Part shown: positions 39,062 through 64,000 of the stretch, piece after piece
Layout of the letters: each line of letters opens with the position of its first letter
Position numbering within the stretch: position 1 is the stretch's first letter
Assembly: GCA_046563655.1 (NCBI GenBank)
Contig: CM102286.1
Location: 8,866,001 to 8,930,000 of the forward strand
Length of the DNA: 64,000 bases
From: Yuukianura sp. NJ FZ-2021
Lineage: Eukaryota
Direction: 5' to 3'
The notes under the pieces: generated by a model
What the model saw: the letters and a program-made list of their open reading frames with translations, nothing else
What the model was told of the DNA's origin: nothing
The model's database searches: none
Translations under genes and position numbers: made by a program

Positions 39062-39508
39062 GTCTACCACATTCAATTCTACGCAATAAAAAAAAACGAA
39101 AAAAAATTCCGCCGACAATGCGATAATATATCTGAACTATAAACGTGTTGCACAGCGTTGCCCAATGTTATTATAACAACAGCTTTTTCAAGGAGGTTAG
39201 GCAATAACTCGAGCAATTTCGTAGATGCCGTGACCTTATCATAAAGTAAAAAAAAACTAGTCGGAAAAATTGAAAAAGAAGTATCTGCTTTTTGCTAATC
39301 GCATAACCACGAAGGATCTGGTCAACGTTAATGTATTCCATGCAATACCAATACATTACTTAAATTAATTCTTGAAAAAAGAAGCCCTTTCAAATACAGG
39401 TTTGTAGGTTATGTGTTGCGCTGGCTGCTACGACACAAGACTATCTGCAATAAGAAAATCAAAATTTTCATCAGCATCAACGTTCAAACTCTACAACTGT
39501 CATAAACC

Positions 39509-43935: not shown

Positions 43936-44702
43936 TGTAAAAACTAAAATCTATTAAAAGTAAACACTATTCGCGTTAAATACAGCACTTTATCTTGGTT
44001 TAAAAGAAATACCTCGAAACGTTCTTACAGAATTTTGAACTTTCTGATGCCGAAATTCATAGATCAGTTTTATAATTTCTATAGTTTTCAAAAGTACCAT
44101 GTAATTGGCTTAAATGACGTCATTTGACGCTATACGTTCCGTAAATTAATTTAAATGAAGTATCAAATTCATGAATTTTACGACGCCACCGTCACTTGGC
44201 TTCATAACTTCTCTAAATACTGTAATTTTTAAACCACGGGAAAACGGAAAACCTGCATTATTTAAACCATATTTGTGTGGTACACAATTGCGTCGTTTGG
44301 GTTATGTCAACCATGGTGTTGCCTGGGCCAACGAACCCAAATTCCAAATCAACAAACTGCCAATCGTTTTGAGTTGAACTATAATCAAGAACGATATTCG
44401 ACCCGTTCTCCTAAACGTTCAATTTTGTGCATTTTGTGTACCACAAATTAACAAAATCAATTTAGTGCAGATCTTTTCGGCCTCAAAACTTTAGCAGGAT
44501 TTTGGTTCAATTAAACGGTAAAATTGCCAAGACATTTGGTGCACAAAGTAGGATCTCACAGTCGCACTGAAAATTTTGAGTGACGTTTTAGAGCTTCAAG
44601 TGCATGAAAACGTTTTCTCCGTTAGTCCACAGTTTTGTGTTAGGCCGGTCTAAATGTCGTATCAATTGTCAACTCCCTCCAGAAGACCTATGCTCAACCC
44701 TT

Positions 44703-45593
44703 GTTGACAATTGATACGACATTTAGACCGGCCTACCGCAAAACTGTGGACGAATTAAGAAACCGTTTTCATGGAACTCTAAAACGTCGCTGAAAATTTT
44801 CAGTGCGAATATGAGATCCAATTTTGTGCATGATGAGTTGCACCAAAATTTTCTTCTCAATTTTACCGTTTAATTGAACCAAAATCATGTTAAAGTTTTC
44901 AATCCCCAAATATCTGCACTAAATTGATGTTGTTAATTTGTTGTGCACAAAATGCACAAAATTGAACGTTTAGGAGAAGATGTCGAATACCGTTCTTGAT
45001 TGATGTTCTTAATTTGTTGAGGAAGATGCACAATGTATTGCGGATGTTGTCATGGCAATGCTCAAGGTAGTTCTTAAACCTGCACAAACCTTCATTTGTG
45101 TGCATCATGCACAAAATTGAACGTTGAGTGGCAGGTGTCGAATATCGTTTCCTTAAAATCAAAATCATAAAAATTTCTTGTGAATGCAAAGTGGAACCCT
45201 GTCAAACACTGTTTACATATTATAAATTTGAGCCGGATTTTTCACACTCTAACTAGGCCTAATTTAACAACGTAATTAAACTAACTGCCAGAAAATGACC
45301 AGATCAAAACTTCGTTGTTCATAAATATTTTGAGTATAATGCAGACATAACACAAAAATATTGAGGACTTAAGAAACAGCAACGCGATGCAAAGGCAAAC
45401 CTTGTGCGTTGTTAATGTAAGACTTTGAGTGCAATGTATACCTAATGAAAATACTTAAGCCATACATAACCCCCTTACTGCGATGGGGCTTATGTTTCAG
45501 TGCAAAAGATGATAAAAAAGCGAACGGACGGACACAGTCGTATCAATAGTCTTCTTCAGCACGTCGTAGACGTGCGTCTCCAGAAGACTAAAA
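44703..45593 (-). mobile_element. DINE-1/HINE-like element fused tail-to-tail with an inverted partial copy (~44385-44702)
   Basis: Family 5' terminus at 45535-45593; the 3' region joins the truncated stem-loop ctatgctcaacccttg of the opposite-strand copy. Confidence 0.78.
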
Positions 45594-45846
45594 TGGCAAA
45601 AGTTATCAAAACAAGGTAGGTCGATGCTCAAGGGTTGAGCATAGGTCTTCTGGAGGGAGTTGACAATTGATACGACATTTAGACCGGCCTACCGCAAAAC
45701 TGGACGAACTGAGAAACCGTATTCATGTAATTGAAGCTTTAAAACGTCACTGAAAATTTTTAGTGCGAATGTGAGACACTACTTTGTGCATGAGTTGCAC
45801 CAAATTTGTCTTGGCAATCTTACCGTTTAACTGAACCAAAATCATG

Positions 45847-47388
45847 TGTAGTGAAATAAGGCCTTTTAGGCCTAAAAGAAACAAGACGCAAAGGTCAACA
45901 CACTACAAGTTTTTGTGCCTCGCTTATTGCGAGGGAAAAATGAACTTTTTATTTCGAAAAGTTAAATGTGAAACTCAGTTTGACCTCGCAGAGGTCAAAC
46001 TGGCGAGTAGTAAAGTCTTCTGCTCCAAGCAGAGCAGAAGGAAGAAGTGTAATGAATTGTGTGCACAGTCGGCGCTGGGTCCTTTTATAGGGCCCAGACC
46101 GGAAACCACAGGAGTAAGATTTAGCTTTGTCTTACTCGAGTTTTACATAAAAATCTATTTTTAGTAAAACAAAGTGCGACAAACTAGTTTGATCTGGTTT
46201 GGGTCCGTTATGGGCCCAAACTTACATAATGTAAAAAGAGACAATGAATAGAAGTTGATGTGCAATTTAGCACAAAAGGAAACAAGGTAGGGCAATGCTC
46301 AAGGGTTGAGCATAGGTCTTCTGGAGGGAGTTGGCAATTGATGCGACTTAAACCGGTCTGCCTCAAAACTGTAGAACTGAGAAACCGTTTTCATGTAGCT
46401 GATGCACCAAAACGTCGCTCAAAATATTCAGTGCATATGTGGGGCCTTTTTGTGCACAATTGCACCAAAATGTGAAAAAACCGTTTGCATAAGAATGTAG
46501 TTCAGCTTTAGTCCTGAACAGTTTTCACTCTCCTGAAAATTATTTTGATTCACAACATTTTTGCATCAAATTGTTCTCAAGTATGAACACAATTAGAATT
46601 CCATTAAATCTGTTCATATAAATGCACAATTATTCTGATGTAATCACCATTCTAAAAGATGTATGTGCAGTTATTCTCCAGTATGCACAAATGTTGAAAT
46701 AACAAGGTTCATTACTCAGCGTCAAAATATCTGCGCAATTTGACACTTATGTGCATTTACTTATAAGTGTGCACGAAATTAAACGTTGAGAGGCAGGTGT
46801 CAATTATAGCTTCTTAAAAATCAAAACGCATGCACCATGTGTTAAGTCATGTACATAAATAACAGAGTCGAATATCATTTGTTTAAGATCAAAATTATAA
46901 AAATTTCTTGTGAATGAAAATTTCAAACCTGCCAACAACTATTTACGTATTACGAATTTAAGGCGCATTTTCTACCCTCTAATCAGTCTTAAGTTAACAA
47001 CGTAACTAAACATACTGCCAGAAAATGACCAGATCAAAACTTCGTTGTTTAAATACATTTTGAGTGTAAACGAAACCAAAACAGTTTTGCGGAGCCACGA
47101 TACTGCGGGTACGTAAAGTAGCCGCCAACTTTTACGTTGTTAATTTAACACTTTGAGTGCAATGTAGACCTACTGAAAACTCTTGAGCCATACATAACCC
47201 CCCGACTGCGATGGGGCTAATGTTTCAGTACAATGAGTCCTAAAAAACGTGACAGACAGACGGACGGACAGACGGACAAAGTCGTATCAATAGTCTTCTT
47301 CAGCACGTCGTAGACGTGCGTCTCCAGAAGACTAAAATGTAAATTGTGACGATACTTGGAAGTTGAGAAACGGACGAACTTCATTACA
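45847..47388 (-). mobile_element. Putative solo LTR (~485 bp) split by a HINE copy
   Basis: Termini tgtagtgaa...ttcattaca (TG..CA, short inverted ends); on the minus strand TATAAAA (46083-46089) precedes AATAAA (45948-45953); the host element resumes at gttaaagtttt. TSD not clean. Confidence 0.6.
46280..47337 (-). mobile_element. Full-length DINE-1/HINE-like element
   Basis: Both termini present: stem-loop atgctcaa-ggg-ttgagcat plus subTIR gtcttctggag at one end; microsatellite, hairpin and ctccagaagactaaaa at the other. Confidence 0.85.
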
Positions 47389-48573
47389 CGTTAAAGTTTT
47401 GAGGCCGAAAACTCACTGCACTGAATTGATGTTGTTAATTTGTTGTGCACCAAATGCACAAAATTGAACGTTTAAGAGAAGGGGTCGAGTATCGTTCTTG
47501 ATTGATTTTCTTAATTTTTTGAGGAAGATGCACATAATGTATTGTCGATGTTGTCATGGCAATGCTCAATGTAGTTCTCAAACCTGCACAAACCTTCAAT
47601 TGTGTGCATCATGCACCAAATTGTACGTTGTGGGGTAGGAGCAGCCCCCTGCGTTCAACCCCCTTAGCAACCAACGCCAGCTTTTGTTTGTGACGTCACT
47701 CGTTGAAAAATACCGGAATTCGGGGAATAATGATGGTATCCCATAGAAACCCATATATTGTTTGATGTTTAGATACGCGCCTCGGATAATAAGCTGACGA
47801 TTACGGTATTTTTCAACGAGTAACGTCATAAAAAAATGCCGTGGTAACCTAACAAATTTTCTGTTCGCACTACCTGTAGTATTCTATTTACCTTGGGGTA
47901 GGAGTCGAATATCGTTTCTTTAAAATCCAAATCATAAAAATTGACTTGTGAATGCAAATTTGACCCCTTTCATTCACTATTCACATATTAAACATTTAAG
48001 CCGGATTTTCTACCCTATAACTAGGCTTAAACTAACAATGTGAATAGACATACTGTCAGCAAATGACAGGGTCAAAACTTCGTTGTTTAAATATATCTTG
48101 AGTGTAATCGAAACCAAAATGTTTTCGGGAAACGACTACACTGCGTGTGCGTAACGTGGCCGCCCATTTCTACGCTGTTAATTCTACAATTTTAGTGCAA
48201 TGTAGACCTAATGAAAACACTTGAGCCACACATAACCCCCCGAACAAATTGGGGCTTATGTTTCAGTGCAAAGTATCCTAAAAAATGTGACGGACGGACG
48301 GACGGACAAAGTCGTATCAATAGTCTTCTTCAGCAGGTCGTAGACGTGCGTCTCCAGAAGACTAAAAAATATACAAATTTGTTCAAATTGGGCTGAAAAA
48401 AATAACAGGAAAACACACCTCTCACAATTCAGCTTCAGAAAAAAAAATAGAAAAGAAATATCAAGTAAACGTCGACAGCATTTTACCATAGAAAACTTTG
48501 AATGTTTTGCATTTTGAACTAATTTTGGCAAAAATTAGTGATATTTCTTAATTTTCGGGACTTTTCGTACATA

Positions 48574-49428
48574 TTTTAGTCTTCTGGAGACGCACGTCTA
48601 CGACGTGCTGAAGAAGACTATTGATATGACTTTGTCTGTCTGTCTGTCACATTTTTTACAACACTTTCTACTGAAACATTAGCCCCATCGCAGTCGGGGG
48701 GTTATGTTTGGCTCAAGTGTTTTCATTAGCTCTACATTGCACTCAAAGTCGTACATTAACAACGCTAAAGTATGCGGCTGTTTCGCGTTGCTGTTTCTTA
48801 AGTCGTCAAAATTTTGTGTTAGGTCTGCATTATACTCAAAATATTTTTTAACAACGAAGTTTTGATCTGCTCATTTTCCGACAATATGTTAATTTACGTT
48901 GTTAAACTAAGACTGATCAGAGGGTAGAAAATGCGGCTTAAATGTTTAACATGTGAATAGTGCATAACAGGGGTCAAATTTGCATTTAGTAGACAATTTT
49001 GATTTTCACAAGGTATATTCAACCCCTCGCCCCAGCGTTCATTTTTGTGCATGTTGCACATGTATTGCACATCAATGTAAAATTGTGCAGTTCTTTTGAC
49101 GCTGGGTAATGGACGTTGTGATGTCAAATTCTGTGCATGTGGGAACAATTGTGCAGCAAAATAATTTTGAAGAGAGTGAAAACTGTTCAAGGTTAGGACA
49201 ACATTTTGATGCAAACGGTTTTTTAACATTTTTGTGCAATTGTGCACAAAAGGTCCCACATCTGCACTGAAAATTATGAGCGATGTTTTGTTGCATAAAT
49301 CTAGTAAAAACGGTTTCTTAACGTTTCTCCTAGACGGGTTTACGGACAGCCGGTCTAAAAGCCGTATCAATTGTCCACTACCTCCAGAAGACCTATGCTC
49401 AACCCTTGAGCATCGCCCTACCTTGTTT
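48574..49428 (+). mobile_element. Full-length DINE-1/HINE-like element
   Basis: ttttagtcttctggag...(gtct)n...ctccagaagacctatgctcaacccttgagcatcgccctaccttgttt. Confidence 0.85.
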
Positions 49429-49749
49429 GGAACTTTTTAACCAATTTTAAAGACTTTCTAAATGCTAAAAACGCCGTTTGTTGGAGCGTACTTATCCGAT
49501 CCTTGATTATAATAAATCAGCCCATGAAGCCCCAAAGCTGATCCATTCCATCCCAAATGCTGGGTTATGCTACGGTTATGGGTTGCAGCAACTGGCCGTA
49601 CCAATAGTATATTTCCCTCCACAAATGGTCGTCATAAATGAAATGATCATTATTTTCGAGTTCATGTACTGTGGCAGTGCTCCGAGATGCTTTAAAGAAG
49701 TTGCTTTTAAAGTAAATATAGAAAGCACGGGTTTTCTTGCTTTCTGCTG

Positions 49750-50736
49750 TTTTAGTCTTCTGGAGACGCATGTCTACGACATGCTGAAGAAGACTATTGA
49801 TACGACTTCGTCCGCTTGCCACATTTTTAGGATACTTTGCACTGAAACATAAGCTCCATCGCAGTCGGTGGGTTATCTACCGCTCAAGTGTTTTCTCTAC
49901 CTCTGCATTGCACTCAAAGTGTTAAATTAACAACGTATAAGTTAGTGACTACTTTACGTACCCGCAGTTTCGTGGCATGGCGAACACATTTTGGTTTCGT
50001 TTACACTCAAAATTTTCTGACAGCTACTTTAATTTCGTTGTAAATTTAACCTAGTTAGAGGGTGGAAACTCCGGCTTAAATTCGTAATACGTAAACAGTG
50101 CTTCGCAGGGTTCAAATTTGCCTTTGCAAGAAATTTTGATTTTAACAAACGATACTCGACTATAGCTTATACCCTTAATTTCAAACATTGTGCATTTACA
50201 TGAACCGATTTCGATTTAAAAGAAGGGATATTTGACCCCTACCCTGAATGTTCAATTTTGTGCACACTTATAAATGTAGATGCATATAAATGTCGAATTG
50301 CGCAGTTATACCCTGAGTAATGAAAGTTGTTATTTCAAAATTGGTGCATACTGAAGAGCCACTGCACATACATCTTTTAGAATGATGATTACTTCCGAAT
50401 AATTGCGCATTTACATGAACAGATTTAAACGCATTCTAATTTTGTGCATACTTGAGAACAAATAATTTTGAAGAGAGTGAAAACTGTTAAGAGCTCAAGT
50501 TGCACAACATTTTTAATGCAAACGGCTTTTTCACATTTTGGTGCAATTGTGCACAACAAAGCCTCACATCTGTATAGAAAATTATCAGCGACGTTTCGGT
50601 GCATAGATCTCGTGAATACGATTTCTTAGCGTTTTTCTTGAACGGGTTTGCAGACAGCCGGTATAAAAGCCGTATCAATTGCCAGCGCCCTCCAGAAGAC
50701 CAATGCTCAACCCTTGAGCATGACCCTACCTTGTTT
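49750..50736 (+). mobile_element. Full-length DINE-1/HINE-like element
   Basis: Same termini as 48574-49428; ends ctccagaagaccaatgctcaacccttgagcatgaccctaccttgttt. Confidence 0.85.
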
Positions 50737-52344
50737 GGTTGTGTTTTTGTTTTTAATAATAATTAATGAATAAACTAACACACTTCTTTTAAGTAAAACT
50801 GAGATTAAAATCAGAATGATTTCGTAATTGAATAATTATCCAGGCCCTACCATGTATTTGTACATGAACAGCGCTATTTGCATTATAAGGAATTCAAGAA
50901 AAGAACAAAAAAAGTAATTAAAGCAAAAACAGCAAAGCACAAGGTTAAAACCGCACTTTTTACGGAACACTGCGCACTGGTACTACGCGTGCCTCCCTGC
51001 AATATCGGTCGCGGACAAAGACTGAGGTTACCAAGTTTGCAGCGCAGAGGCTTTAAACTTCCCAAAAAATTATGGGACTACTCGCAAAAAATCTATTGCA
51101 ATTAAAGAGAAAATTTGACACTAATTTCGTCTCTCAAGAACGCGAAAAAAAAGTTTGACCTAGGTGAGATCGAACTCCAGCCTGATATGCAAGTTGCTAT
51201 AAAACATCAAAAATTATTAAAAATTCAAAAGTCGAAGATAACTAAACCTCATGACAGAAGCTAATGGCAGTGGCAAGGAAACTCCTGATTTTCAAAATGG
51301 CCGCCGCGTCTGCGCAAAAACGTTTTTGCACATGACGTCACCCCCCCCTTCCGCACCCCCCATACCCCCCCCACTATATATCCCTTCCCCCTATATCCCC
51401 CCCCACGTGACCCCCCCCCCTCCCCCAAACCACAAAAAAAAATCAATTTTTGAAAAAAAAAACAATTTTAAAAAAATCATTTTTTTTACAAAAAAAAAAA
51501 AAATAAAAGAATTTTTTCCTAAAATTTGGAAATTGGAAAATGTTTTGAAACTTGGAAATTGAAGTGGCTGTTAAAACTTTAGGCAAACTTCCCCAGATTA
51601 CCCCAACCCCAAATTTCAAGGTCACGCCAAATTTTTCAAGGTCGCGCGTGCCCGTTGCATTGGCATATGCATTTGTGTCAAGGTCATGCGCGCCCATTTG
51701 CAATTTCGTATAAATTTGTTCAAGGTCATTCCAATTTGTTTTTCAAGGTCAAGCGAGCATTTTGAAATTGAAATGTCCCGGGAGCCCTTTTCTGGGTTCC
51801 CGGGACCAAGAAGATCAAGGATGGTGCATGGGCAGTACATTCGGCTGGTCAGAGGATTAGTGGGGTGCCACTCGGCCACTGCCAAAACAAACCGCAAACC
51901 ACTTCCGGTTAGGCTGCCAAAAGAAACCGCAAACCACTTCCGGTCAGTAGAGTATTCGGGGGTGACTTCACGTAATTATTTTTAGCTCAGCCGCGGGGGC
52001 TAGTCGGGCGCAATATTGGGGAGGGAAAACCCCTCAAAAAATACATAATGACAAAATCTCAATATCTAAAATGTCAAAAATGTCAACAACAAAAAGGCCG
52101 ACATCAAAAAGGTCGACAACGAAAAAGTCAAAACACAAGTATTGGAATTTTTCATAGAAAATTCGAAAAGTTCTTTTCAAAACAACTTTTCACAAGAAAA
52201 AAACGTTTTTTGAAAATTTTTTAAAATTCATTCAAGCATTGTTTCGAGGGCTACTTAAACAGTGAACTCTGAATCTAGAAGTCATCAGTTCTGAACTTAG
52301 TAGTGGAAATTACAACATTCCTACTCCATAGCCATTCTCAAAAG

Positions 52345-52719
52345 ATGGAAGAAGTAAAGCATGAAATTGCTCTCCGAGTAAGAGGTATTCCATGGGAAAG
52401 GCGTCCAGAAAAGTGTCCTGGATTTTATATAACTCCAATTTGTTTGCAAAACTCGTCAGCGTTTAAAACTCACGAAGAGTACAAAGCGCTTCCAGTTACT
52501 CGGGTTTGCGATCACAGTCGCTGCAACTATAGTGGTGAATACGACTACATGATTGAAAAACTGTTTGGAGATGGAGTATTTAAATCAGCTGATTTGCAAG
52601 AAATTATGGACGAAGTTTCACGGCTCCGAAAATTTAAAAGTATTATTGCAAATACATGCAATGTTCTGGATTCATTTTACGAAAGGGGAAGAAAGCAACA
52701 GCCGACCCACATTCCCTAG
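52345..52719 (+). CDS. Unknown protein in the left arm (ORF A, 124 aa from first ATG)
   Basis: Open frame MEEVKHEIALRVRG..., preceded by tacttaaa (~52252) and tcagtt (~52286); mirrored at 57596-57970. Confidence 0.5.
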   Translation: MEEVKHEIALRVRGIPWERRPEKCPGFYITPICLQNSSAFKTHEEYKALPVTRVCDHSRCNYSGEYDYMIEKLFGDGVFKSADLQEIMDEVSRLRKFKSIIANTCNVLDSFYERGRKQQPTHIP

Positions 52720-53048
52720 TTCCTGGTTATGACTTTTCCAGAAGCAAAGAAGCTCCTTGTACCTTACCATGCAACGGCTGGAACTGTGATACAACGACGT
52801 TTGCAAAGTACATTATCATTGCGGCTTTAGCCCGTGGATATTTGGCTCCAACGTATTCCCTTCGAAATAATCCACTCATCATCCTGGAAAAAGTGGGGTG
52901 GACGGCAATGCTGAATGCAACTCCTCATGAAACACATAAAGAATTTATTCAAAATTCAGAAAACTGGCTTGCAAAACAATGGAAGTTTCTGTGGAGCCCT
53001 GACGTTCTCTACACTGCGCGTCAACAACGAATATCTCATTTTGCTTGA
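52656..53048 (+). CDS. Unknown protein in the left arm (ORF B, 130 aa; overlaps ORF A, possibly its frameshifted C-terminus)
   Basis: Open frame with protein-like composition; mirrored at 57267-57659. Confidence 0.45.
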   Translation: MQCSGFILRKGKKATADPHSLVPGYDFSRSKEAPCTLPCNGWNCDTTTFAKYIIIAALARGYLAPTYSLRNNPLIILEKVGWTAMLNATPHETHKEFIQNSENWLAKQWKFLWSPDVLYTARQQRISHFA

Positions 53049-53339
53049 AGTTTATTTCGAGCATGTCGTTTCCGAGTCGACGACCGTTTAACCTTTTTTA
53101 TTTTTAAGATTCCGAGAATGTCGTTTTGACTCGTTTAACCTTGTATTTTTTCAAAATAGTTTTAAAAGATAGGAATGTAAGCCGTTTCTTGGAAGAAGGG
53201 TCGTTTCTGTTGAAAAAACGTATCCCCCAATATTTTAAAAGATGGCTACAGAGTACAAAGTATTCAAGCTGAAACGCTTGAACACCTCATGGCTGGATTT
53301 ATCCAGCCCAGTCCTGGGGAAGCCTTTGGGCCGTGTGAG

Positions 53340-53820
53340 CCAGCCCTTGGACGCATGCCCTTGGACGCCAGCCCTTGGACGCCAGCCCTTGGACGCCAGC
53401 CCTCAATTCGCATGAATTTTTAACGTAATATAACAACTTCACTGCATAATACAATGGTCTCTCTACATAATACAATGGCCTCTCTGCATAATACAATGGC
53501 CTCTCTACATATTACCATGGCCCAGTTGTATAATACCACAACGTCATTACATAATGCCGAGTTTATTCTGTACAACATAGCGAGTTTGCGAGAGTAAAGT
53601 CTAGACTTTGTCAATGTCACGGGAACTTACTCCGTGAGTACACCTTGCAGAGTTCTTCCTCGGGATTATTTCCCGCAGGTAACCTTCCTTCGAGAGTCAG
53701 ATCATCGTCAATACCATGGTCACGTTGTATAATACCATGGTCACATTGTATAATACCATGGTCACGTTGTATAATACCATGATCACGTTGTATAATACAA
53801 TAACCTCACTGCATAATACA
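53340..53820. repeat. Tandem repeat blocks within the inverted arm (14-bp gccagcccttggac; 21-bp cataatacaatggcctctcta; 21-bp gttgtataataccatggtcac)
   Basis: Seen at 53340-53403, 53440-53540 and 53710-53820; mirrored at 56470-56975. Confidence 0.85.
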
Positions 53821-53896
53821 ACATTTTTTGTCAATTTTACATCCAATCACCACCACCACCACCACCACAAGCCCAACGTGCCCACCCATGCAAAAG

Positions 53897-53932
53897 TATA
53901 AATAGCGACGTTGACTTGCTCATCTCTCAGTT
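53897..53932 (+). promoter_or_regulatory. TATA box plus arthropod initiator (TCAGTT) for the GGFL-protein gene
   Basis: TATAAATA 53897-53904 and TCAGTT 53927-53932 (TATA about 32 nt before the Inr A); ATG at 53999. Confidence 0.75.
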
Positions 53933-53998
53933 TCGTTTCAGACGTTGAGCTGTTAAGACGTGAAGATTTTACCATCTGGAGCGGTTAGGCTAACAGTC

Positions 53999-55396
53999 AT
54001 GGCGCAAAAATACATTCTTGTTCACCAAGACGACTACAACAGTCTACTGGATCGGCTTGAGACATATGAGTCTCAGCAAAACAGCCCTTGCAAAAGTTAT
54101 TTTGGAGAAAAGCAAATCCATGATGGTTTTTTGCTTGATACTACACCCGTACAATACTTACAGCAACATACAATGAACATGTCTCAGAGCCGTGGACCAA
54201 TGGAGCTTCATGAGCGTAATTCGCGAGATTCTGGGAACAACATTCCAATCGAACTTCAGAATCATATGATGCAAACGGAATTACGCCAGAACTGGGAAAA
54301 TCAACGGAAGCGAAGGGAAGGCTACGTCAATGTGAACGTTGTAAACGATAGGCGGTTGAATGATATGGCTACAAGCCACTTTAGCGGATGGGATGGTGTA
54401 CCGGAAAAGTCAGCCAGAAAAACCGAAGACAGATATGACCGAATTACGACCTGGTCAGAAAATCCAACGAATGGTTGGTCAAATACTGTGGTAAAGCCGA
54501 ATGACGCGCTCGAGATGCCATTTTCTAAGAGATTTAAAAAAGAATCGCAAATTGCGAAAGATGAAACGCCGACAGCAGCACCGACAACTCCACCGTTTAC
54601 TATGGACCAGTTTTCAGCTGTTGGAAAACAGCTAGCACAATTTTTTGTAGCAAATGGTGCAACCTTTGCGAACAATAGCGTTAGTCTGGGTGATGCCAAC
54701 ATACCCAGGAGCGAGTTCGAGGAGGGAATACGAAAACTTGCGGATGGAAGATATAAGTTGACAAGACAAATGATTCCTGTCATCGTAGACTTTATGATTC
54801 AGACAGGCATTCCAAAATATCTGCTTCCGATCAGCCACCGAGGCTTGCTCGGTCGAGATGAACCTAAAAAGCTTTCTAGAAATCGCCCGCACGTGGAAAG
54901 TGATGTAGAAAATGAAGAAGAAGAAGATGATGAGGAAGACGAGGGGGATGAAGAATGGGAAGAAGAAGTAGAAGAAGAAGTAGAAGAAGAGGAGGAAAAC
55001 GAGGAAGACGAAAGGGATGAAGAAGGGGAAGAAGAGTATAGACAAACTGGAGGAGCTAAACCATCACCAGGTCCCATACGACATTATCAATTTCTCCACC
55101 AGATGAACCAACACTCCCCTATTATACGCGAGACACTGCTCTCCACAGCGTCTCGTGGTCAAATTCTTGGGTTACACAAATGTGTTCAGGACGTAATCCA
55201 GGGCAACATTCCTATTGAGGCCACCGTCAAAAATATCTTGAGACCGCATCGATATAAGATTAAACGTGTTGCAGAAGCTAAAGGATCGATTGAAGACAAG
55301 AAAAAACTACTTATACAGCACGGCGGGTTCCTGCCAGCTCTTCTCGCTGCCGCATTACCAATACTTGGAGAGTTTCTCACTAGCGTAATTTCGTAG
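53999..55396 (+). CDS. Polinton/adintovirus core-like protein (465 aa) with acidic tract and C-terminal adenovirus pX-like GGFLPALL motif
   Basis: N-terminal MAQKYILV; middle SVSLGDANIPRSEF...FMIQTGIPKYLL; E/D tract; QTGG; C-terminal LHKCVQDVIQGNIPI...KKKLLIQHGGFLPALLAAALPILG, resembling a conserved Polinton basic protein (from memory). AATAAA at 55445-55450. Confidence 0.72.
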   Translation: MAQKYILVHQDDYNSLLDRLETYESQQNSPCKSYFGEKQIHDGFLLDTTPVQYLQQHTMNMSQSRGPMELHERNSRDSGNNIPIELQNHMMQTELRQNWENQRKRREGYVNVNVVNDRRLNDMATSHFSGWDGVPEKSARKTEDRYDRITTWSENPTNGWSNTVVKPNDALEMPFSKRFKKESQIAKDETPTAAPTTPPFTMDQFSAVGKQLAQFFVANGATFANNSVSLGDANIPRSEFEEGIRKLADGRYKLTRQMIPVIVDFMIQTGIPKYLLPISHRGLLGRDEPKKLSRNRPHVESDVENEEEEDDEEDEGDEEWEEEVEEEVEEEEENEEDERDEEGEEEYRQTGGAKPSPGPIRHYQFLHQMNQHSPIIRETLLSTASRGQILGLHKCVQDVIQGNIPIEATVKNILRPHRYKIKRVAEAKGSIEDKKKLLIQHGGFLPALLAAALPILGEFLTSVIS

Positions 55397-55493
55397 AATT
55401 ATACACCTTTATGACTGTAAATTCGTTAGATTCCGAATTTTCAGAATAAAAAACTTGAAAATAGAACTTTTATCGTGTAATGTGTTTATTCAT

Positions 55494-56308
55494 TCATTCA
55501 TTAACATAGATTCGACAATTTTCAGGAAATATATTATCTCTAATGCGAAACAAATCATTTTGTCGTTGAGTTAAATCGATGAATAGATATCCATATTGCT
55601 TTAACATGCATTCCTTGTAGGCTTCTTCCATGGTTGTATTCTTCTTTCCTCCATTCATTTGACGTCCAAGACAAGCTACAAATTGAGAGTCTCGCGGATT
55701 CTTCATTAGAGCAATGTAGTGACAGTTTGACGTGATTTCTTTCATATTCCTGTGAAAAAGTTTTGCACAAGAATGATGAGTGATACGTTGCGGTGATGCG
55801 AAGTCCTTGTGAACGCAGCTCCAACTTCTCTGTTTTTGCCTGCTTCATGCATCAAATCGTCAAGGACGACGACTGACGGCTTGTCGGTTCCGTCATGCCA
55901 TTTTTCAGGAAGTCCACGATGAAATTGTATAGTTGGAATCTTGGTCTTCAATTCTCCAAACAGCGTAGGCTGGAACTCAGTGTAGCAATACATGATACGT
56001 TCCAAGGGCTTGTCAATATTAGTCTCGATAATTTCGTTTCGTCGTAGAAGTATTTGCTTCACAAGGGTGCTTTTGCCGCTCTGAGTCATTCCACTGATAC
56101 ACAAAGTAAACGGTGCAACCAAATGCGGGTCAAACTTTTTCCCAGAGTGTACATGTCGAAACATAGTAGATTTTTCCCGCTGATTCATGCATACCTGAAG
56201 CATTTTCGATACTGCGACGCTACTATGACAAGTTAACTTGTGTCGTTTCAATGCGTCCCTTCGTGAGAATTGTCTGCAGCAAATATCGCACGCTGTACTG
56301 GTATCCAT
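55494..56308 (-). CDS. Polinton-type A32/FtsK-like DNA packaging ATPase with N-terminal C2H2 zinc finger (1-nt frameshift at ~55757)
   Basis: CDICCRQFSRRDALKRHKLTCH; Walker A PFTLCISGMTQSGKST; Walker B VVVLDDLM; FTRTSHHRNVSLIILVQNFF; then, in the next frame, ITSNCHYIALMKNPRD...YGYLFIDL...RIRDNIF. One extra T in the T-run restores NFFHRNMKEIT. Confidence 0.9.
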
Positions 56309-56360
56309 GATGTATAGTCCACAGAATCTTCACGTCTTAACAGCTCAACGTCTGAAACGA

Positions 56361-56396
56361 AACTGAGAGATGAGCAAGTCAACGTCGCTATTTATA
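56361..56396 (-). promoter_or_regulatory. Second copy of the TATA+Inr promoter, for the ATPase gene
   Basis: Reverse complement of 53897-53932; ATG at 56308. Confidence 0.75.
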
Positions 56397-57266
56397 CTTT
56401 TGCATGGGTGGGCACGTTGGGCTTGTGGTGGTGGTGGTGGTGGTGATTGGATGTAAAATTGACAAAAAATGTTGTATTATGCAGTGAGGTTATTGTATTA
56501 TACAACGTGACCATGGCATTATACAACGTGATCATGGTATTATACAACGTGACCATGGTATTATACAATGTGACCATGGTATTATACAACGTGACCATGG
56601 TATTGACGATGATCTGACTCTCGAAGGAAGGTTACCTGCGGGAAATAATCCCGAGGAAGAACTCTGCAAGGTGTACTCACGGAGTAAGTTCCCGTGACAT
56701 TGACAAAGTCTAGACTTTACTCTCGCAAACTCGCTATGTTGTACAGAATAAACTCGGCATTATGTAATGACGTTGTGGTATTATACAACTGGGCCATGGT
56801 AATATGTAGAGAGGCCATTGTATTATGCAGAGAGGCCATTGTATTATGTAGAGAGACCATTGTATTATGCAGTGAAGTTGTTATATTACGTTAAAAATTC
56901 ATGCGAATTGAGGGCTGGCGTCCAAGGGCTGGCGTCCAAGGGCTGGCGTCCAAGGGCATGCGTCCAAGGGCTGGCTCACACGGCCCAAAGGCTTCCCCAG
57001 GACTGGGCTGGATAAATCCAGCCATGAGGTGTTCAAGCGTTTCAGCTTGAATACTTTGTACTCTGTAGCCATCTTTTAAAATATTGGGGGATACGTTTTT
57101 TTCAACAGAAACGACCCTTCTTCCAAGAAACGGCTTACATTCCTATCTTTTAAAACTATTTTGAAAAAATACAAGGTTAAACGAGTCAAAACGACATTCT
57201 CGGAATCTTAAAAATAAAAAAGGTTAAACGGTCGTCGACTCGGAAACGACATGCTCGAAATAAACT

Positions 57267-57970
57267 TCAAGCAAAATGAGATATTCGTTGTTGACGCGCA
57301 GTGTAGAGAACGTCAGGGCTCCACAGAAACTTCCATTGTTTTGCAAGCCAGTTTTCTGAATTTTGAATAAATTCTTTATGTGTTTCATGAGGAGTTGCAT
57401 TCAGCATTGCCGTCCACCCCACTTTTTCCAGGATGATGAGTGGATTATTTCGAAGGGAATACGTTGGAGCCAAATATCCACGGGCTAAAGCCGCAATGAT
57501 AATGTACTTTGCAAACGTCGTTGTATCACAGTTCCAGCCGTTGCATGGTAAGGTACAAGGAGCTTCTTTGCTTCTGGAAAAGTCATAACCAGGAACTAGG
57601 GAATGTGGGTCGGCTGTTGCTTTCTTCCCCTTTCGTAAAATGAATCCAGAACATTGCATGTATTTGCAATAATACTTTTAAATTTTCGGAGCCGTGAAAC
57701 TTCGTCCATAATTTCTTGCAAATCAGCTGATTTAAATACTCCATCTCCAAACAGTTTTTCAATCATGTAGTCGTATTCACCACTATAGTTGCAGCGACTG
57801 TGATCGCAAACCCGAGTAACTGGAAGCGCTTTGTACTCTTCGTGAGTTTTAAACGCTGACGAGTTTTGCAAACAAATTGGAGTTATATAAAATCCAGGAC
57901 ACTTTTCTGGACGCCTTTCCCATGGAATACCTCTTACTCGGAGAGCAATTTCATGCTTTACTTCTTCCAT
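57267..57970 (-). CDS. Right-arm copies of ORF A (57596-57970) and ORF B (57267-57659)
   Basis: Translations identical to the left-arm ORFs. Confidence 0.45.
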
Positions 57971-58015
57971 CTTTTGAGAATGGCTATGGAGTAGGAATGT
58001 TGTAATTTCCACTAC

Positions 58016-58410
58016 TGTTAGAAAGTCGACCAGAAAACTAACCGTTAACTGCTCTTTCTGAGTTCCTACAAATGACTGGCCGGAGCAACTGACTAACTGA
58101 CCAATGACTGGACAGGACGACTCAAAACTACCAACTCGTAGTTAATTGACTAAACCTTTTTAATTGATCAAAACGATTAATCCAAATCTTACAGATTCTC
58201 CTCTTATACTTGTATCTTAACTTGTTACGACTTGTTAACACTAAACTTAACACCTCGAGGTGAGAAACCTTGAGCGCAGGCGTAAAGCCTATTTTAAATT
58301 TAGAAAACCAGAAAGAGAAAACGCGCTCAAAATTCTCACTTCCTAAAACTAAACATTTCTAAAAACTAATCTTGAAAACACAAAAAATGAAAACACTCAA
58401 TTATCCAACA
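58016..58410 (-). repeat. 3' LTR of the BEL/Pao element (395 bp)
   Basis: On the minus strand: PPT gaaagtgggaagaaa, then TGTTGGATAA ... TTTCTAACA. Confidence 0.88.
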
Positions 58411-58611
58411 TTTCTTCCCACTTTCTGAGGTAAGAAATTACCGAAGAAACTTAACCAATCATTTTGAAACTCTATTGGAAAAGTAAACAGAGAAAGTTAA
58501 ATACCTAAAATGTACACTTAACTTTAAACTCAAAAATGAAACCATAACTTAGCCAATCAAATTAAACTAACCTTTAAACTTGAAATGGAAACGAAAATGA
58601 AAAAACTAAAT

Positions 58612-61600
58612 CTAACTGAAGGTGAAACGCTTCGGCTTCCTCACTTGTCTCCCGCTTCGGGTAACGACGGGATCCGATTCCACCTCCATATCCAGTTCTT
58701 CTACTGATGACTCCTGTTCCTGGAGTTTTCTTGGCTTTGTGATGTTCTTCTTGACTCCACTCTTCGGCTCTTCCTCCGTGATGATTTCGGTGACTTCATG
58801 CCGAATCTCCAGTGGAATCAAACGTTGTATGGGACGAAGCTGAGTTCCGTTTTTCGTCCTGATTCTGGCCACTCGAACTTCTCCGTCTTTCCCTGGAAGG
58901 AGTTCCACAATCTTCGCCATTGGCCAAAAGATCCGCTTCTGATTGTCGACTTCGACCAGAACGACTTCTCCGATTTCAAACTTCCGGATCTTCTGCTCCT
59001 TCCCTCTCTGTATCAATTGTCCCAAATATTCAGATCGAAAACGATCTCTGATTTCTTGATGGAGCTGCTGCAGATTCTTTTGCTCCTTCTTCAGTGTTGA
59101 CACTACGACGACACTTGACTCCGGTACCTCACTGTAGGGAAGATTGTACATAAACATAGCAGGAGTCAATGGCACAAAATCTTCCGGATCTTCTGTCACG
59201 TATGTCAATGGGCGGTGGTTGATGGCAGCTTCCACTTCACAAAGTGCTGTCTCCAGTTGCCCCAATGACAATTTGCCGAATCCAAGTGACTTTCGCAGCA
59301 GATCCTTGGTGCTACGCACTAAACGTTCCCACCAGCCTCCCCACCACGGTGCTGAGGGTGGGTTGAAAATCCAATTGATCCGTTGTTGCTGGGTTTCTTT
59401 TTTCACTTCTTCCCAGTCGATCTTCTTGAACAGATTCACGGCACCTACAAAGTTAGTCCCATTGTCCGTATAAACAATTGACGGTCGTTGCTTACGTTTG
59501 CAGAAACGGACAAAACACAGCAAAAAATCTTCAGTCGACAACGACTCGGTCACTTCCAAATGAACACCACGGTAAACGGCGCATGTGAACAAAACGATGT
59601 AGCATTTCTTCTTGTTCTTGAGACTTAGAGGACCGGCCAAGTCAATCCCTGTAACTTCAAATGCACTGGCCCCTCTTACTCTTGGTTCTGGTAGTGGACA
59701 TGACTTGACCTGGTGCTTCCTTCCGTCGAATCTTTTGCACTTTACGCATTGACGGATGACTTTGACCACTGTCTGTCTCCCCCGAACTATCCAGAACTTC
59801 TCACGTAACTTTGACATCAGCAGTTGAGCTCCACCATGTACATTCTGCAGATGCTCCTTTTGTATGATCAGATCCACCAGAGGGTGAGAATGTGGAAGTA
59901 GGGCTGGAAAACGAAATGACGCCGTGTCTTCTCTTCTGACTATCTTCGTAGACACTCGAACAATGCCCTCTTCGTCTCTGACTACTCGTAAACCCTCAAG
60001 TACTGACTTTGTAGTGTCAAAAGCTTCTGACTGTACAATTCGAATCAGCATCGTCTCCGTAGTCTCCAGTTCTTCTCTAGTAGGTCGTGGGCTCTTCTCA
60101 ACTGACTTTCTTTTGAGCTTATGCACGAACCTAAGAACATAACAAAGGACACGGAGATTAGACTCGTAGTGATTCTTCCTGATGTACCAGAGTTCAGATG
60201 CAGCATTCAAATTCACGAGAGACGAAATGTTCTTCTTTCTCTCCCGGTTCACTTCTTCCTCGTCCACGACGAATTCTGCATTTGGCCACTTCTCCTTAGG
60301 CAGTCTCAGCCACGCAGGTCCTTCCCACCATTTCGACTCGAGGAATTTGATGGGACTGATGCCTCTGGAGGGAACATCTGCTGGATTGTTGACTCCTGGG
60401 ATGTGGTTCCAGTCACTCACGTTGGTCAAAGAGCAGATCTCCTTGACTCTGTTTCCCACAAAAGTGCCCCAGTTGTCACTTCCTCTAATCCACGACAGTG
60501 CTGTTGACGAGTCTGACCAGTAGAAGGTATTGATGCCACTCAATTGAAGGGCCTCCTTGATACTAACTCCCAGTCTTGCTGCAATGGTGCTGGCGAGTAG
60601 TTCCAGTCTCGGAATTGTAGTAGCTTTCAATGGGGCGACTCGAGACTTGCACTGGACAAGATAAACTTTGACATTCGACGTCGTCTCCACACGCAGAAAC
60701 GCTACTGCTGCATAGGCCTTCTGAGATGCATCTCCAAACACATGTAATTGGCACTGGCAGTCTTGACCAACGTTACCAGTTATGTCCCTCGGAATTTGAA
60801 TTTTCTCCATGACACTGGACAGCTCCTTGGACCATAACAAAAATTCCGACTTGATTTCTTCTGTCACTTCCTCGTCCCACTTTTTGCTGTCACTCCAGGC
60901 TTTCTGTAGAATCATCTTTGGCACGATCAACACTGGAGATAAAAATCCGAGGGGTCAAACACTTTCTGAAAAACAGACAAAATTACTCTTTTAGTAATTT
61001 TAAGTGGAATGTCCAATGGAACTGAGTCACAAAACAAAGTATCAGTCTTCTTATTCCACTTCAGACCCAAAACACTAGTCACAAACTGTTCACCACAAAT
61101 ACCACTTTGTTCCCACTGTCGTAGCTCCATTTTGGCTGTTGACATAATTGAAGTAGACACCTCACGAATAGTTCCAAGGTCACTTTCTCTGTCTACTGCA
61201 AAAACCAAATTGTCAACATAAAGAGACTTTTCCATTAAACTCACGACAGTCTGTGCCACACTCCTATTTTTGGACAAGTGATGAAGAATAACTGCTCCCA
61301 GTAGAAATGGACTGCAGTTCATCCCAAACACGACACGATTATGCTGGAAGACTTTAACTTGACTTTGTGACGAGTCTTCCCACCAAAGAAACTGGAGATA
61401 CTTTCGGTCACTCTCATTGACATCAATCATCAGAAATGCTTTTCTGATGTCAGCAGTGACCCCAATTCTCCCAAATCTGAAACGCAGCAAAATAGAGGGG
61501 ATCAGTTCAATCAGATTTGGACCTTTCTCCAAACAGTCATTGAGTGACGGATTGCGGCCAACTTTACAACTGGCGTCAAAGACTGGTCGCACTGGTGTAG

Positions 61601-63866
61601 TGACACTGGATTTGAAAACGGCTCTGTGAGGAAGAAAATGGCAATTGGCAATGTCCACATCACTTTTCACAACCGAAATGATGCCTTCCTCCTCCCAGTC
61701 ACTAAACACTTTGTCGTAGTCACCAAATCGTCCAAGTGTCACCAACTTCCGGGTAGTATTTTCCAATCTCTTGAGGGCCACTGAACGATTGGAGGGCAGA
61801 GACTGAACACCATTTGACCATGGCAGAGACACTGAGTACCGACCATCCGAATTCTGCTTGACGGTACGTTGGAAATGGTCAATGGCTTCTCTCTCCTTCT
61901 CTTCTTTAGATTTCACTTCAACTGGGTCCAGAATTCCAATTGTGTCCAAATTCCACAGCTGAGACACAGAAAAACTTGAAATTGTCATTGACATGACAGT
62001 CATGGCCACAGTGTCCAATTTGGTTCCGCACATTGGACCAAACACTGCCCATCCAAACTTTGTCTCGGTTGCAGTGAGTCCACTGGCCAACCGCTGGATC
62101 CTTCCAGTCAAAATTCTTCCCATAGCGTCCGCTCCAAGTAGTACTTCGACTTCCATTGGGTTTTTCGGATCCACGTCACTGAGTCTCACTCCCCTCCTCT
62201 TAAACTGCTGAATCCATGGACCATCAGGAATCCTAGGAACTTCACCACAGATGTATTCCTGGTCCATCAGCGTAAACAAAGATGAAAACTTGTTGAGGGG
62301 ACTGCCAATGTTCACTTCAAAAATTGAATGTCGGTTTCCCACGACTTCATTTCCACCAAACAGCAAGTGATTCATAGTCACAGTCTCCTTCACATCCAAA
62401 TTCAGGGCCTCGGCAGTCTTCTTCAGGATGTAGGATTTTTGGGAACCACAATCCAAAATCATCCTCACATTTCTGGTTTGATGTGTCACTGGATTTTCCA
62501 TCCGAACAATTAGTGTACGTAGGAGCACTTCACTGGTACAGTTCAAACTGCTGAGAACTGTCTGCTCTTCCGTAGCCACTTTCGGTTTCACTTCTGCACC
62601 AGGACACAAAAGAATAGCATGTCTCTTCCCACAAAGTAAACACTTAACACGAATGTTGCACTTTGAGACGACATGACCAACTTTGAGACATGAGAAACAT
62701 GCACGTTTCTTGGAAGCAATTTCCTTCTTCTCTTCCAACTTCATCTTCTGGGCTTTGTAACAATTGTTGGAGTCGTGGGGCTTCTCACAAAAAATGCATG
62801 AGACTTTTCCCGCCTTCCCACCTCCACTTGTTCCACTAAAAAGTCCAGCTGAAGTTGGAAAGTCCTCATCTGAGTATTGCTGTCGATTCTGGACTTTCCG
62901 TTTTTCTTGAATGAGGCCGAATCCAGACCGGGCTAACTTCCGCTGTTCCTCATTCTCGATCTCGATCTTCAGAAACGACATTAGAAAATCCAGTTCCGAT
63001 TTTGGAGGATTTTCTTTCGATCCGTCCTTCCCAAAATTCGGACTGCGCTGCCAGGCAAGAAGAACATCTTCCGGCAGACTGGATTCCACCATTGGAAATA
63101 AAAATTCCACCATTTGCTCCATGCTGACACCAAGTGATTCCAAGGAACGTAGTGAAGCCTCCAACTTGTCAAAAAGTGTAGCGAGTGGCGTCTTCTCCTT
63201 TGAGCGATTATCCAAAATCAATTTAATCAGCTCACGGACGTACACTTGCTTGAGCAATTTCTCCTTGCCGAATCGTTCCTTCAGTGCAGCAAGGGCTTTC
63301 GGGTAATTTTCAGAAGACTGGGGATAACGCTTCACAACTTCTTCTGCACGTGAGCCCAACACCATGGACTGCACCAAGTAACTGAATTTGTCTGAATCGT
63401 GGAGCTCCTCATCTTCATCAATTTTCTTGAATTGGGCCCACCAACCCAACCAGTCCGTCAAATCTCCGTTGAATTTCATCAAATCGATCTTCGGCAGTTT
63501 GACACGACGACTGTAGGCGTTGGATGACTCGCTTCTCGTTGGACTGACTGGGCGTTGACTTTTCCACAGATTCTGGAGTTTCGTTTCTGCCTTGACTTTG
63601 ACTAAAGTTGCCTTCTTCCGAAACTCCCGACTTTCCGTCCGTTCTGAGGAAAGGGCACACCCATCAACATCTTCCATATCCAAAATAAACTCCTTGATCT
63701 TCTCATCAAGTTCGGACAATGTTTGTAGAGAAGAATCCAGTAACTGCAGTGACGTCACGATCTCATCTGGGTTCACTGGTTCTTTCTGCAATTCATCTTC
63801 AAGTGACTTGACTATTTCCAGTACGTCACTCCTCTCAGCAGCTCTTTCACGTTTAGCTCTCTCCAT
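58612..63866 (-). CDS. BEL/Pao Gag-Pol polyprotein (single 1-nt frameshift at ~60952)
   Basis: VKLPKIDLMKFNGD Gag; three Cys/His knuckles (CIFCEKPHDSNNC, CFSCLKVGHVVSKC, CLLCGKRHAILLC); protease ILDCGSQKSYI; RT ADIRKAFL...YVDN; RNase H LHVFGDASQKAY; integrase HHCC, GIDLAGP, TDNGTNF and GWWERLV. One extra C restores FDPLGFLSPV. Confidence 0.95.
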
Positions 63867-64000
63867 TACTCAAAAGGTAAACAAAAGAAAACCAAGTATC
63901 AGAATTTTGGTTTAACCAATTGATCTGAACGATCGTCACCTCAGGAAGTCCCGTTCCGGTTGGGACAGACCACTACGTATTCGATTGTGGCAGTATCGGC

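Follow-up and report, generated by a model that had tools for sequence, protein, structure and literature searches.

Polintons, or Mavericks, are usually viewed either as complete virus-like elements of 15–25 kb or as decayed fossils. Here, we describe a locus in a stretch of 64,000 nucleotides (nt) from Yuukianura sp. NJ FZ-2021 (contig CM102286.1 of assembly GCA_046563655.1, positions 8,866,001 to 8,930,000; hereafter the window, in whose numbering coordinates are given), where two long inverted arms enclose a short core with two convergent genes. One encodes a packaging ATPase of Polinton type; the other, gene 1, ends in a conserved domain that we call GGFL; and each arm carries a copy of a third gene, the arm gene. 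We think it reasonably probable that the locus holds one integrated member of a compact, non-autonomous, multi-copy family that derives from an animal Polinton/Maverick (adintovirus-like) and probably needs a complete relative, or helper, to spread.

With the autonomous Polintons, Mavericks and adintoviruses (15–25 kb), the element shares inverted repeats, the GGFL domain and an A32-type ATPase that nests among ATPases encoded next to pPolB. Unlike them, it has no pPolB, rve integrase, capsid proteins or adenain, and its core measures 2.36 kb; its ATPase and GGFL genes converge instead of lying in tandem, and its GGFL domain is the C-terminal part of a fusion protein. Vertebrate Mavericks resemble it in having two transcription units that converge on the center (PMC8097293). 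In butterfly polintons, terminal inverted repeats (TIRs) of ~2 kb contain genes, and derivatives lacking polB have stayed mobile (preprint 10.1101/2025.02.07.637071). Our element is like these in its long inverted arms with whole genes, two gene copies per element, and in its multiplication without polB. According to the same source, however, the butterfly elements retain hexon, penton, integrase and further genes, measure at least 12 kb, and duplicate hexon and adenain in their TIRs (10.1101/2025.02.07.637071), whereas our element has three kinds of gene only and duplicates a gene from an undescribed family.

Two further comparisons concern gene content. In the adintovirus proteins PLA2X and GasderminX, as presented by Starrett et al. 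(2021; PMC8502044), a variable N-terminal part is followed by a pX-like C-terminal domain, an arrangement much like that of gene 1; unlike theirs, the N-terminal part of gene 1 matches no Pfam family and, by sequence, no structure in the PDB. Transpovirons are ~7-kb linear elements bounded by TIRs and derived from Polinton-like viruses; as small, helper-dependent reductions of a Polinton-class genome they parallel our element, for which helper dependence is presumed (PMC5499653). Their reduction took the other direction: they lost the morphogenetic module and keep a superfamily 1 helicase fused to an inactivated polymerase (PMC5499653). Our element instead kept the ATPase, and Pfam searches of its open reading frames (ORFs) find no helicase or polymerase domains.

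Bidnaviruses, too, have small linear genomes with inverted ends and ambisense genes, and their link to Polintons is a pPolB gene. Our element differs in having neither pPolB nor parvovirus-like genes, and no second segment of it is known. Defective adenovirus genomes and the hairpin or inverted-duplication derivatives of protein-primed linear plasmids are likewise short, with long inverted terminal duplications whose arms are kept identical by end copying. These are usually near-perfect palindromes of one end, whereas here the center holds two genes with separate predicted promoters. In the literature covered (Creative Commons-licensed articles in PMC, and bioRxiv; Repbase was outside this scope), no Polinton derivative is described that has lost both polB and integrase while keeping an ATPase along with a pX-like gene. 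Long TIRs with genes in them and derivatives without polB are already known; a reduction to an ATPase, a pX-like fusion protein and an arm gene in two copies is not described within that scope.

Global alignment shows the left arm (1670 nt) and the right arm (1692 nt) to be inverted copies with 0 substitutions (feature coordinates are collected in Table 1). Just two differences separate them: a single-base indel within an A run (53212/57102), and one 21-nt repeat unit that the right arm has in addition (56511–56531). A repeat search resolves them into three adjoining inverted blocks: 52299–53218/57097–58016 (100%), 53213–53821/56493–57101 (99%) and 53710–53968/56325–56583 (98%). Between the arms lies a core of 2356 nt, in which gene 1 and the ATPase gene are arranged tail to tail, with stop codons 98 nt apart; the ATG of gene 1 (53999) lies 31 nt inside the arm edge, and that of the ATPase (56308) 17 nt inside. 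An earlier note on this stretch had described near-identical inverted arms of ~1.7 kb around a 2.36-kb core with two convergent genes, and both descriptions are confirmed.

The part of each arm next to the core is rich in repeats. In the left arm, these comprise a 14-nt unit in 4.6 copies (53339–53403), 21-nt units in 3.7 (53445–53522) and 4.2 copies (53710–53798), and (CAC)7 (53848–53868). The motif TATAAATA follows at 53897–53904 (mirror 56389–56396) and an initiator-like TCAGTT 30 nt further on, at 53927–53932 (mirror 56361–56366); the two motifs are common to both arms, one set preceding each core gene. Each half of the element has repeat arrays and a predicted TATA/initiator promoter facing the core. 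Promoters in the arms had been proposed in the earlier note, and the motifs before each gene agree with that; the arms are not mere promoters, however, since each also holds a gene of ~235 amino acids (aa).

The ATPase is identified by its relatives. Its first ORF piece alone scores 19.1 bits against the Pox_A32 family (PF04665; cut-off 22.8), a level exceeded by relatives, and also contains a C2H2 finger, which several relatives likewise have at the N-terminus. Homologs were recognized in 41 of 94 candidates, the best 77% identical, and 26 of the 41 match PF04665. The window sequence keeps all 19 of the 19 invariant alignment columns, including Walker A (G..SGKS) and Walker B (DDL), and the SHH.N block as well. 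A search of the PDB with the ATPase profile returned only generic P-loop GTPases.

To place the ATPase among Polintons, we compared 81 loci, 80 from a metagenome scan and one (L081) found through a weak ATPase match among viral contigs. In 23 of these, a pPolB homolog lies upstream of the ATPase and shares its strand, and in 7 one lies on the opposite strand; an rve integrase homolog is present in 21; and a small GGFL gene follows the ATPase on the same strand in 27. Many contigs are only 1–4 kb long, so these counts are lower bounds. Six long loci (L028, L029, L034, L036, L046 and L079) show a canonical set of pPolB, ATPase, small gene, chromodomain integrase, capsid-size ORFs and Peptidase_C5, in agreement with the pPolB-ATPase-PM-PZ module reported for vertebrate Mavericks (PMC8097293). 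The ATPase tree has 69 rows, the 13 loci without near-full ATPase matches being excluded. In it, the window and L001–L004 form a clade with 100/99 support, nested in a second 100/99 clade of 19 rows, of which 8 have pPolB upstream. Among the closest relatives, L001 has pPolB upstream and L004 has an integrase. This position, together with the genes next to the relatives' ATPases, indicates that the window ATPase descends from ordinary Polintons, and supports the earlier note in calling the cassette Polinton-like. In 27 of the 81 loci the GGFL gene is found downstream of the ATPase on its strand; the convergence of the two genes in the window departs from this, which argues against a simple internal deletion and upholds the same note on that point as well.

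Several of these loci are of interest in their own right. In L004 and L009, an integrase on the opposite strand lies between the ATPase and GGFL genes. In L017, the gene directly after the ATPase (758–1546) has a PI-PLC-X phospholipase C domain (Pfam, E = 2.7e-6), which recalls, by analogy, the membrane-active accessory genes described for adintoviruses. A large ORF at the pPolB position of L079 (7081–10611) has an N-terminal C2H2 finger similar to that of the window ATPase (56228–56299); the finger is its only Pfam match, and its C-terminal part weakly matches pPolB-type queries.

Gene 1 consists of an N-terminal and middle part to residue ~290, an acidic run, and the GGFL domain at residues ~361–465. 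By tblastn against the 81 loci, its last ~100 residues belong to a family of small proteins of 107–131 aa, matched in 27 loci, with the motif C..EC..N....GN.PL, a basic run, and Q.GGFL followed by a hydrophobic tail. Across an alignment of 19 sequences the C, Q, GG and L are invariant, and the window keeps them all. In the relatives the domain is a stand-alone protein encoded downstream of the ATPase on the same strand, whereas in the window it forms the C-terminal part of a 465-aa protein encoded opposite the ATPase. The rest of gene 1 has relatives as well: its N-terminal and middle part matches the ORF after the small GGFL gene in L004 (E = 4e-9), and its middle part matches a C-terminal extension of the ATPase ORF in L003 (E = 4e-13) and is homologous to the corresponding extension in L002. 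This part, recurring in several relatives, thus appears to have been fused to different partners, and the two-part homology shows gene 1 to be a fusion of two proteins of the Polinton neighborhood, joined by the acidic run. The ATPase ORF itself runs into the extension in L002 (72–1724) and L003 (712–2313), both of which are among the four relatives closest to the window.

The label "pX-like", used for this protein in the earlier note, survives in part. The conserved C-terminal domain is real, but 3 of the 19 GGFL relatives match Adeno_PX (PF05829) at E ≤ 1, all below threshold (the listed matches being L068, 19.6 bits, E = 8.5e-4, and L048, 16.6 bits, E = 7.3e-3, both in the GG-plus-tail region, with a cut-off of 25 bits), and the window domain does not match at E ≤ 1. 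We therefore use the label for a resemblance in sequence. By position alone, the small GGFL protein is possibly the "PM" ORF of PMC8097293. A PDB search with the GGFL profile gave chance-level matches only. A word-based homolog search with gene 1 found no match, its homologs coming from tblastn on the relatives' loci only, and an exact look-up of five window proteins in a protein collection was negative. Reading Q.GG/F as an adenain cleavage site was considered and dropped, since it does not fit the cleavage consensus cleanly.

The earlier note's claim that the element keeps only virion-assembly genes turns out to be wrong, because the arms carry a third gene. Its two pieces are the ORFs 52303–52719 and 52656–53048 and their mirrors. 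The protein has two similar modules, each with the pattern C.GF ... C.H..C followed by a hydrophobic, helix-like stretch. Six proteins reached E ≤ 0.001 in a full HMMER search that used the second piece as query, and of these P0043 and P0044 were judged real; the other four are bacterial proteins with Listeria-Bacteroides repeats and were judged spurious. The P0044 cluster includes a 327-aa member, P0048, which both pieces match colinearly, the first at residues 56–86 (E = 1e-7) and the second at 131–251 (E = 3e-15). P0043, P0044 and P0048 are the only homologs in the libraries searched. A word-based homolog search with the second piece found no match, the protein falls in no Pfam family and has no relative in the PDB by sequence, and the Atlas model of P0048 (pLDDT 0.33) gave no usable structural match. 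Judged by sequence, the arm gene represents an undescribed protein family. Among the variants listed for its ORF, 13 of 19 are synonymous, which points to purifying selection while the family diversified.

The genes that are missing were sought across the whole window. With 23 queries from the relatives' loci (pPolB, integrase, capsid-size proteins and protease), the only match was to a C2H2 finger. Four pPolB queries found nothing but this zinc finger, and Pfam scans found no DNA_pol_B_2; three integrase queries found no match, the sole rve domain being that of a BEL/Pao retrotransposon pol (58612–60933); and the capsid-size ORFs and the Peptidase_C5 ORF of L036, L046 and L079 had no match in this sequence-level search. 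The stated absence of pPolB, rve integrase, adenain and capsid genes between the arms thus holds, and extends to all 64 kb.

Evidence that the locus is one of many comes from Logan contigs of public sequencing runs. The arm is present in five runs, of which four were compared: X1–X3, from one sample of organism A, and X4, from another study and organism B. Contigs placed on the window number 230, 516, 724 and 105 in the four runs, spread over 99+, 95–99 and 90–95% identity; a spread over 90–99% is the signature of a repeat family. The tail-to-tail junction is bridged by contigs of X1 (55149–56250), X2 (55232–56005) and X4 (55169–56325), and the junction of arm and gene 1 by a contig of X4 (53769–55158). 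In X1 and X2, contigs begin at 53939, 30 nt within the arm, which is what a branch point would produce. Contig depth is alike for the ATPase and gene 1 within each run (206 vs 171; 2148 vs 1958; 113.5 vs 117.9), and cover is sparse at 53099–53355 in X4 and at 57468–57724 in X2. The element thus belongs to a multi-copy family whose tail-to-tail core recurs in both organisms. Like a non-autonomous DNA transposon family, it has copies in several variants that share one architecture, and no transposition genes of its own.

These contigs bear on two less favorable explanations. Identical arms could be a false inverted duplication made during assembly, and both frame breaks of the window copy, one in the arm gene and one in the ATPase gene, sit in short A/T runs, a setting prone to consensus errors in long-read data. 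The locus is more than a simple palindrome, however: two different genes join the same arm end, and the arms differ by a whole 21-nt repeat unit. Moreover, both the convergent core and the join of arm and gene 1 recur in contigs from independent runs, one of which comes from a separate study of a second organism, and we consider an artefact very improbable. The frame breaks could instead mark a one-off fossil, a decayed Polinton fragment rearranged by local inverted duplication, and the region is indeed rich in transposons (Helitron, BEL/Pao and satellite-like repeats). Yet at the arm-gene break, contigs one base different in length account for about half of the X1 depth and for the entire X2 and X4 depth, and at the ATPase break for the entire depth of all four runs. 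The breaks are therefore not family-wide: only a subset of copies has them, or else they arose as consensus errors in the assembly. Further evidence against a fossil comes from the recurrence of this core and of the arm/gene 1 junction across contigs of four runs and two organisms, the many variants at 90–99% identity, the similar depths of ATPase and gene 1, the excess of synonymous changes in the arm gene, and the compact predicted promoters and AATAAA signals, and we hold a fossil to be improbable.

The earlier note had taken 52300..58015 as the bounds of the element. The outer arm edges are not its termini. On the right, the arm abuts the 3′ long terminal repeat (LTR) of the BEL/Pao element at 58016/58017; a polypurine tract (58411–58426) and a pol gene (58612–63869) with Peptidase_A17, DUF5641, integrase and reverse transcriptase domains (Pfam) follow. 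X1 has five contigs with differing sequence before 58016, as expected for the tip of a repeated LTR, and contig depth in X4 falls from ~115 within the element to ~9 right of 58016. On the left, two X4 contigs (52144–52431 and 52144–52374) cross the edge at 52299, and single-base differences at 52197 and 52227 occur at arm-like depth in all or most runs. A second TCAGTT lies beyond the detectable repeat, 55 nt ahead of the arm-gene ATG (52345). Among the rows listed, loose contig ends on this side cluster at 51990 and at 52068–52073, and the depth profile differs between the two organisms. Since X4 contigs pass 52299 and the LTR sets the edge at 58016, the arms are at least 1.67 kb long and the ends of the element lie elsewhere, which makes 5.7 kb a lower bound on its size. 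The left arm probably continues out to ~52073 or further, and what remains of the right arm is expected past the BEL/Pao element, in sequence that the window does not cover.

Further left is a cluster of motifs, enriched over shuffled sequence, whose membership in the element is uncertain; the depth profile over it is ambiguous. Beside it, an imperfect 13-bp hairpin-forming palindrome, read by eye, lies at 51776–51808, where X4 depth shifts; it might mark a boundary of the element. No Rfam family was found within 51000–58700, and a scan for bacterial-type promoters and terminators was set aside, the genome being that of an animal.

If the locus is a non-autonomous Polinton derivative, as we favor, a complete Polinton in the same host would supply end replication, integration and perhaps packaging, and the element would behave as a non-autonomous transposon or satellite. 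Each half would be one transcription unit running from end to center, a full Maverick layout in miniature. Arms free of substitutions would mean that the copy is very young, or else that it underwent end-to-end copying of the kind known from protein-primed replicons. The BEL/Pao element landed in the right arm later. The specialised satellite that the earlier note offered as one of two possibilities comes close to such a helper-dependent derivative.

Several caveats weigh against this explanation. No helper element was seen, and the window copy carries two frame breaks, one each in the arm-gene and ATPase frames. Variants in gene 1 are not clearly constrained, with 5 of 13 synonymous among those listed. 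Autonomous Polintons have terminal inverted repeats with conserved end motifs and a 6-bp target-site duplication; what the window shows is a pair of inverted arms, neither outer edge of which is a terminus, and the right end of the element lies beyond the window. The evidence from the runs consists of the best-supported rows, with 212 variant, 209 loose-end and 1562 contig rows besides. The junction of ATPase and arm is strictly bridged by none of the contigs listed, the best, from X2, reaching 14 nt into the arm. Relative to the BEL/Pao pol bin, core depth is ~1.1–2.3x in X1 and X2 (171–263 vs 155 in X1; ~2000 vs 868 in X2) and ~20x in X4, but contig depth gives no copy number, and with no single-copy baseline its ranking is unreliable. 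The outer arm has ~0.6–2x the depth of the core across runs, not a clean 2x. Finally, one contig each of X2 (255 nt) and X4 (232 nt) departs from the inner arm module at 57092, and both continue into one shared, unrelated sequence that the window lacks. The arm depth and this join suggest that some copies may have one long arm, or another outer module, or sit inside something larger.

It is conceivable that the core and inverted promoter modules are internal to a larger Polinton family, and that the window copy is atypical, its outer arm module having been copied across. The join at 57092 and the uneven arm depth would fit this, as would the rearrangements common in the clade, such as the integrase placement in L004 and L009. 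Nothing Polinton-like occurs for 50 kb left of the arm, however; the arms are identical over 1.67 kb; and X4 contigs bridge the arm/gene 1 junction and continue past 52299 at arm-like depth. We regard this alternative as unlikely.

About as doubtful, in our estimation, is a true satellite: a linear mini-genome of 6–7 kb with its own ATPase, pX-like protein and arm protein that borrows polymerase, integrase and capsid from a helper, or else one segment of a divided genome. As a satellite, its Cys-rich, probably DNA-binding arm protein might recognize the 21-nt arrays, so that its own DNA would be loaded preferentially into helper capsids. A distinctly smaller chance attaches to the element being a segment of a multipartite Polinton-like virus, as the earlier note also suggested, or an episomal linear mini-genome, with sister segments that would have the same arms but hold the genes for pPolB, integrase and capsid. 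The compact, genome-like organization, the substitution-free arms, the frames intact in most run contigs and the different sequence found next to the inner arm module in X2 and X4 are compatible with it, and L022, a metagenome contig described below, is a similar small unit in an independent lineage. Yet the window copy is chromosomal and has a retrotransposon inserted; the 90–99% spread of variants resembles a genomic repeat family; depth in organism A is within ~2.3-fold of the BEL/Pao pol bin; and no sister segment was seen, nor any capsid or replicase gene linked to the arms. Nothing observed requires segmentation, and its sole hint is the join at 57092.

L022 measures 4164 nt and has 0.63-kb inverted repeats at both ends (94% and 89% identity). 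Inside it, a decayed C2H2-ATPase gene (+ strand) and a GGFL-type small gene (− strand) diverge from a central tandem repeat that codes for His and Pro, and L032, L020, L021, L039 and L049 are 80–89% identical to parts of it. Its ATPase falls on the far side of the tree from that of the window, which makes it an independent small ATPase-plus-GGFL unit and hints that reductions to this pair recur. If the satellite or segment reading were true, the L022 family would mean that ATPase-plus-GGFL mini-genomes arose more than once.

Table 1. Features of the element and its flanks, in window coordinates
Feature	Position	Strand	Basis
Motif cluster left of arm: TCAAGGTCR x5, ACCGGAAGTGG x2; membership in element uncertain	51616..51944	+	Both motifs enriched over shuffles
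Probable outward continuation of left arm; TCAGTT 52285–52290, 15-nt x4 repeat 52075–52135	52073..52298	+	X4 contigs, repeats, motifs
Left inverted arm, extent detectable in window	52299..53968	.	Alignment vs right arm
Arm gene, left copy; Cys-rich, ~235 aa, two similar modules; one frame break near 52635	52345..53048	+	ORFs and homology
Inner arm module, left	53339..53932	+	Repeat and motif search
Gene 1, 465 aa from first ATG	53999..55396	+	ORF and tblastn
AATAAA past gene 1 stop codon	55445..55450	+	Motif search
AATAAA just past ATPase stop codon	55485..55490	-	Motif search
Pox_A32-type packaging ATPase, N-terminal C2H2 finger; one frame break near 55745–55755	55494..56308	-	ORFs, Pfam, homologs
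Right inverted arm, outer edge cut by retrotransposon LTR	56325..58016	.	Alignment and LTR annotation
Inner arm module, right (mirror); 21-nt unit in 5.2 copies	56361..56975	-	Alignment, repeats, motifs
Arm gene, right copy; identical to left including frame break (mirror near 57675)	57267..57970	-	ORFs and alignment
BEL/Pao 3′ LTR, 394 nt, TGTTGG...TCTAACA on minus strand; outside element, sets apparent right-arm end	58017..58410	-	Sequence features

The other large ORFs of the window belong to a Helitron, the BEL/Pao element, exons of Cbl and an ion-channel-like gene. The Cbl exons, on the minus strand at 18640–19530 and 23081–23587 (Cbl_N at E = 5.5e-51; UBA only weakly, at E = 0.004, short of the Pfam cut-off), point to the window being animal chromosomal DNA. 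The Helitron (31935–35952) is represented by Helitron_like_N and PIF1 helicase pieces in several frames. A second pair of inverted repeats (36545–37327/38281–39063; 783 nt, 97%) encloses 953 nt with a longest ORF of 95 aa, and just downstream an 859-aa ORF (39506–42085) weakly matches a ligand-gated ion channel (E = 0.0024). Immediately left of the element's neighborhood, diverged direct and inverted repeats with a spacing of 1.0–1.7 kb occupy 43473–50738 and may be satellite-like or nested transposons.

Of the two usual views of Polintons, complete virus-like elements or decayed fossils, the element seems to fit neither: it is compact and ordered, has three kinds of gene, has multiplied in two organisms, and has kept only the packaging-ATPase side. 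The arm gene adds an undescribed protein family with three homologs in the libraries searched. As a small, tractable unit, the element lends itself to finding what Polintons need in cis, namely ends, repeat arrays and promoter. More generally, the pattern suggests a parasite-of-a-parasite layer, satellite or defective-interfering-like, for the polintoviruses of animals.

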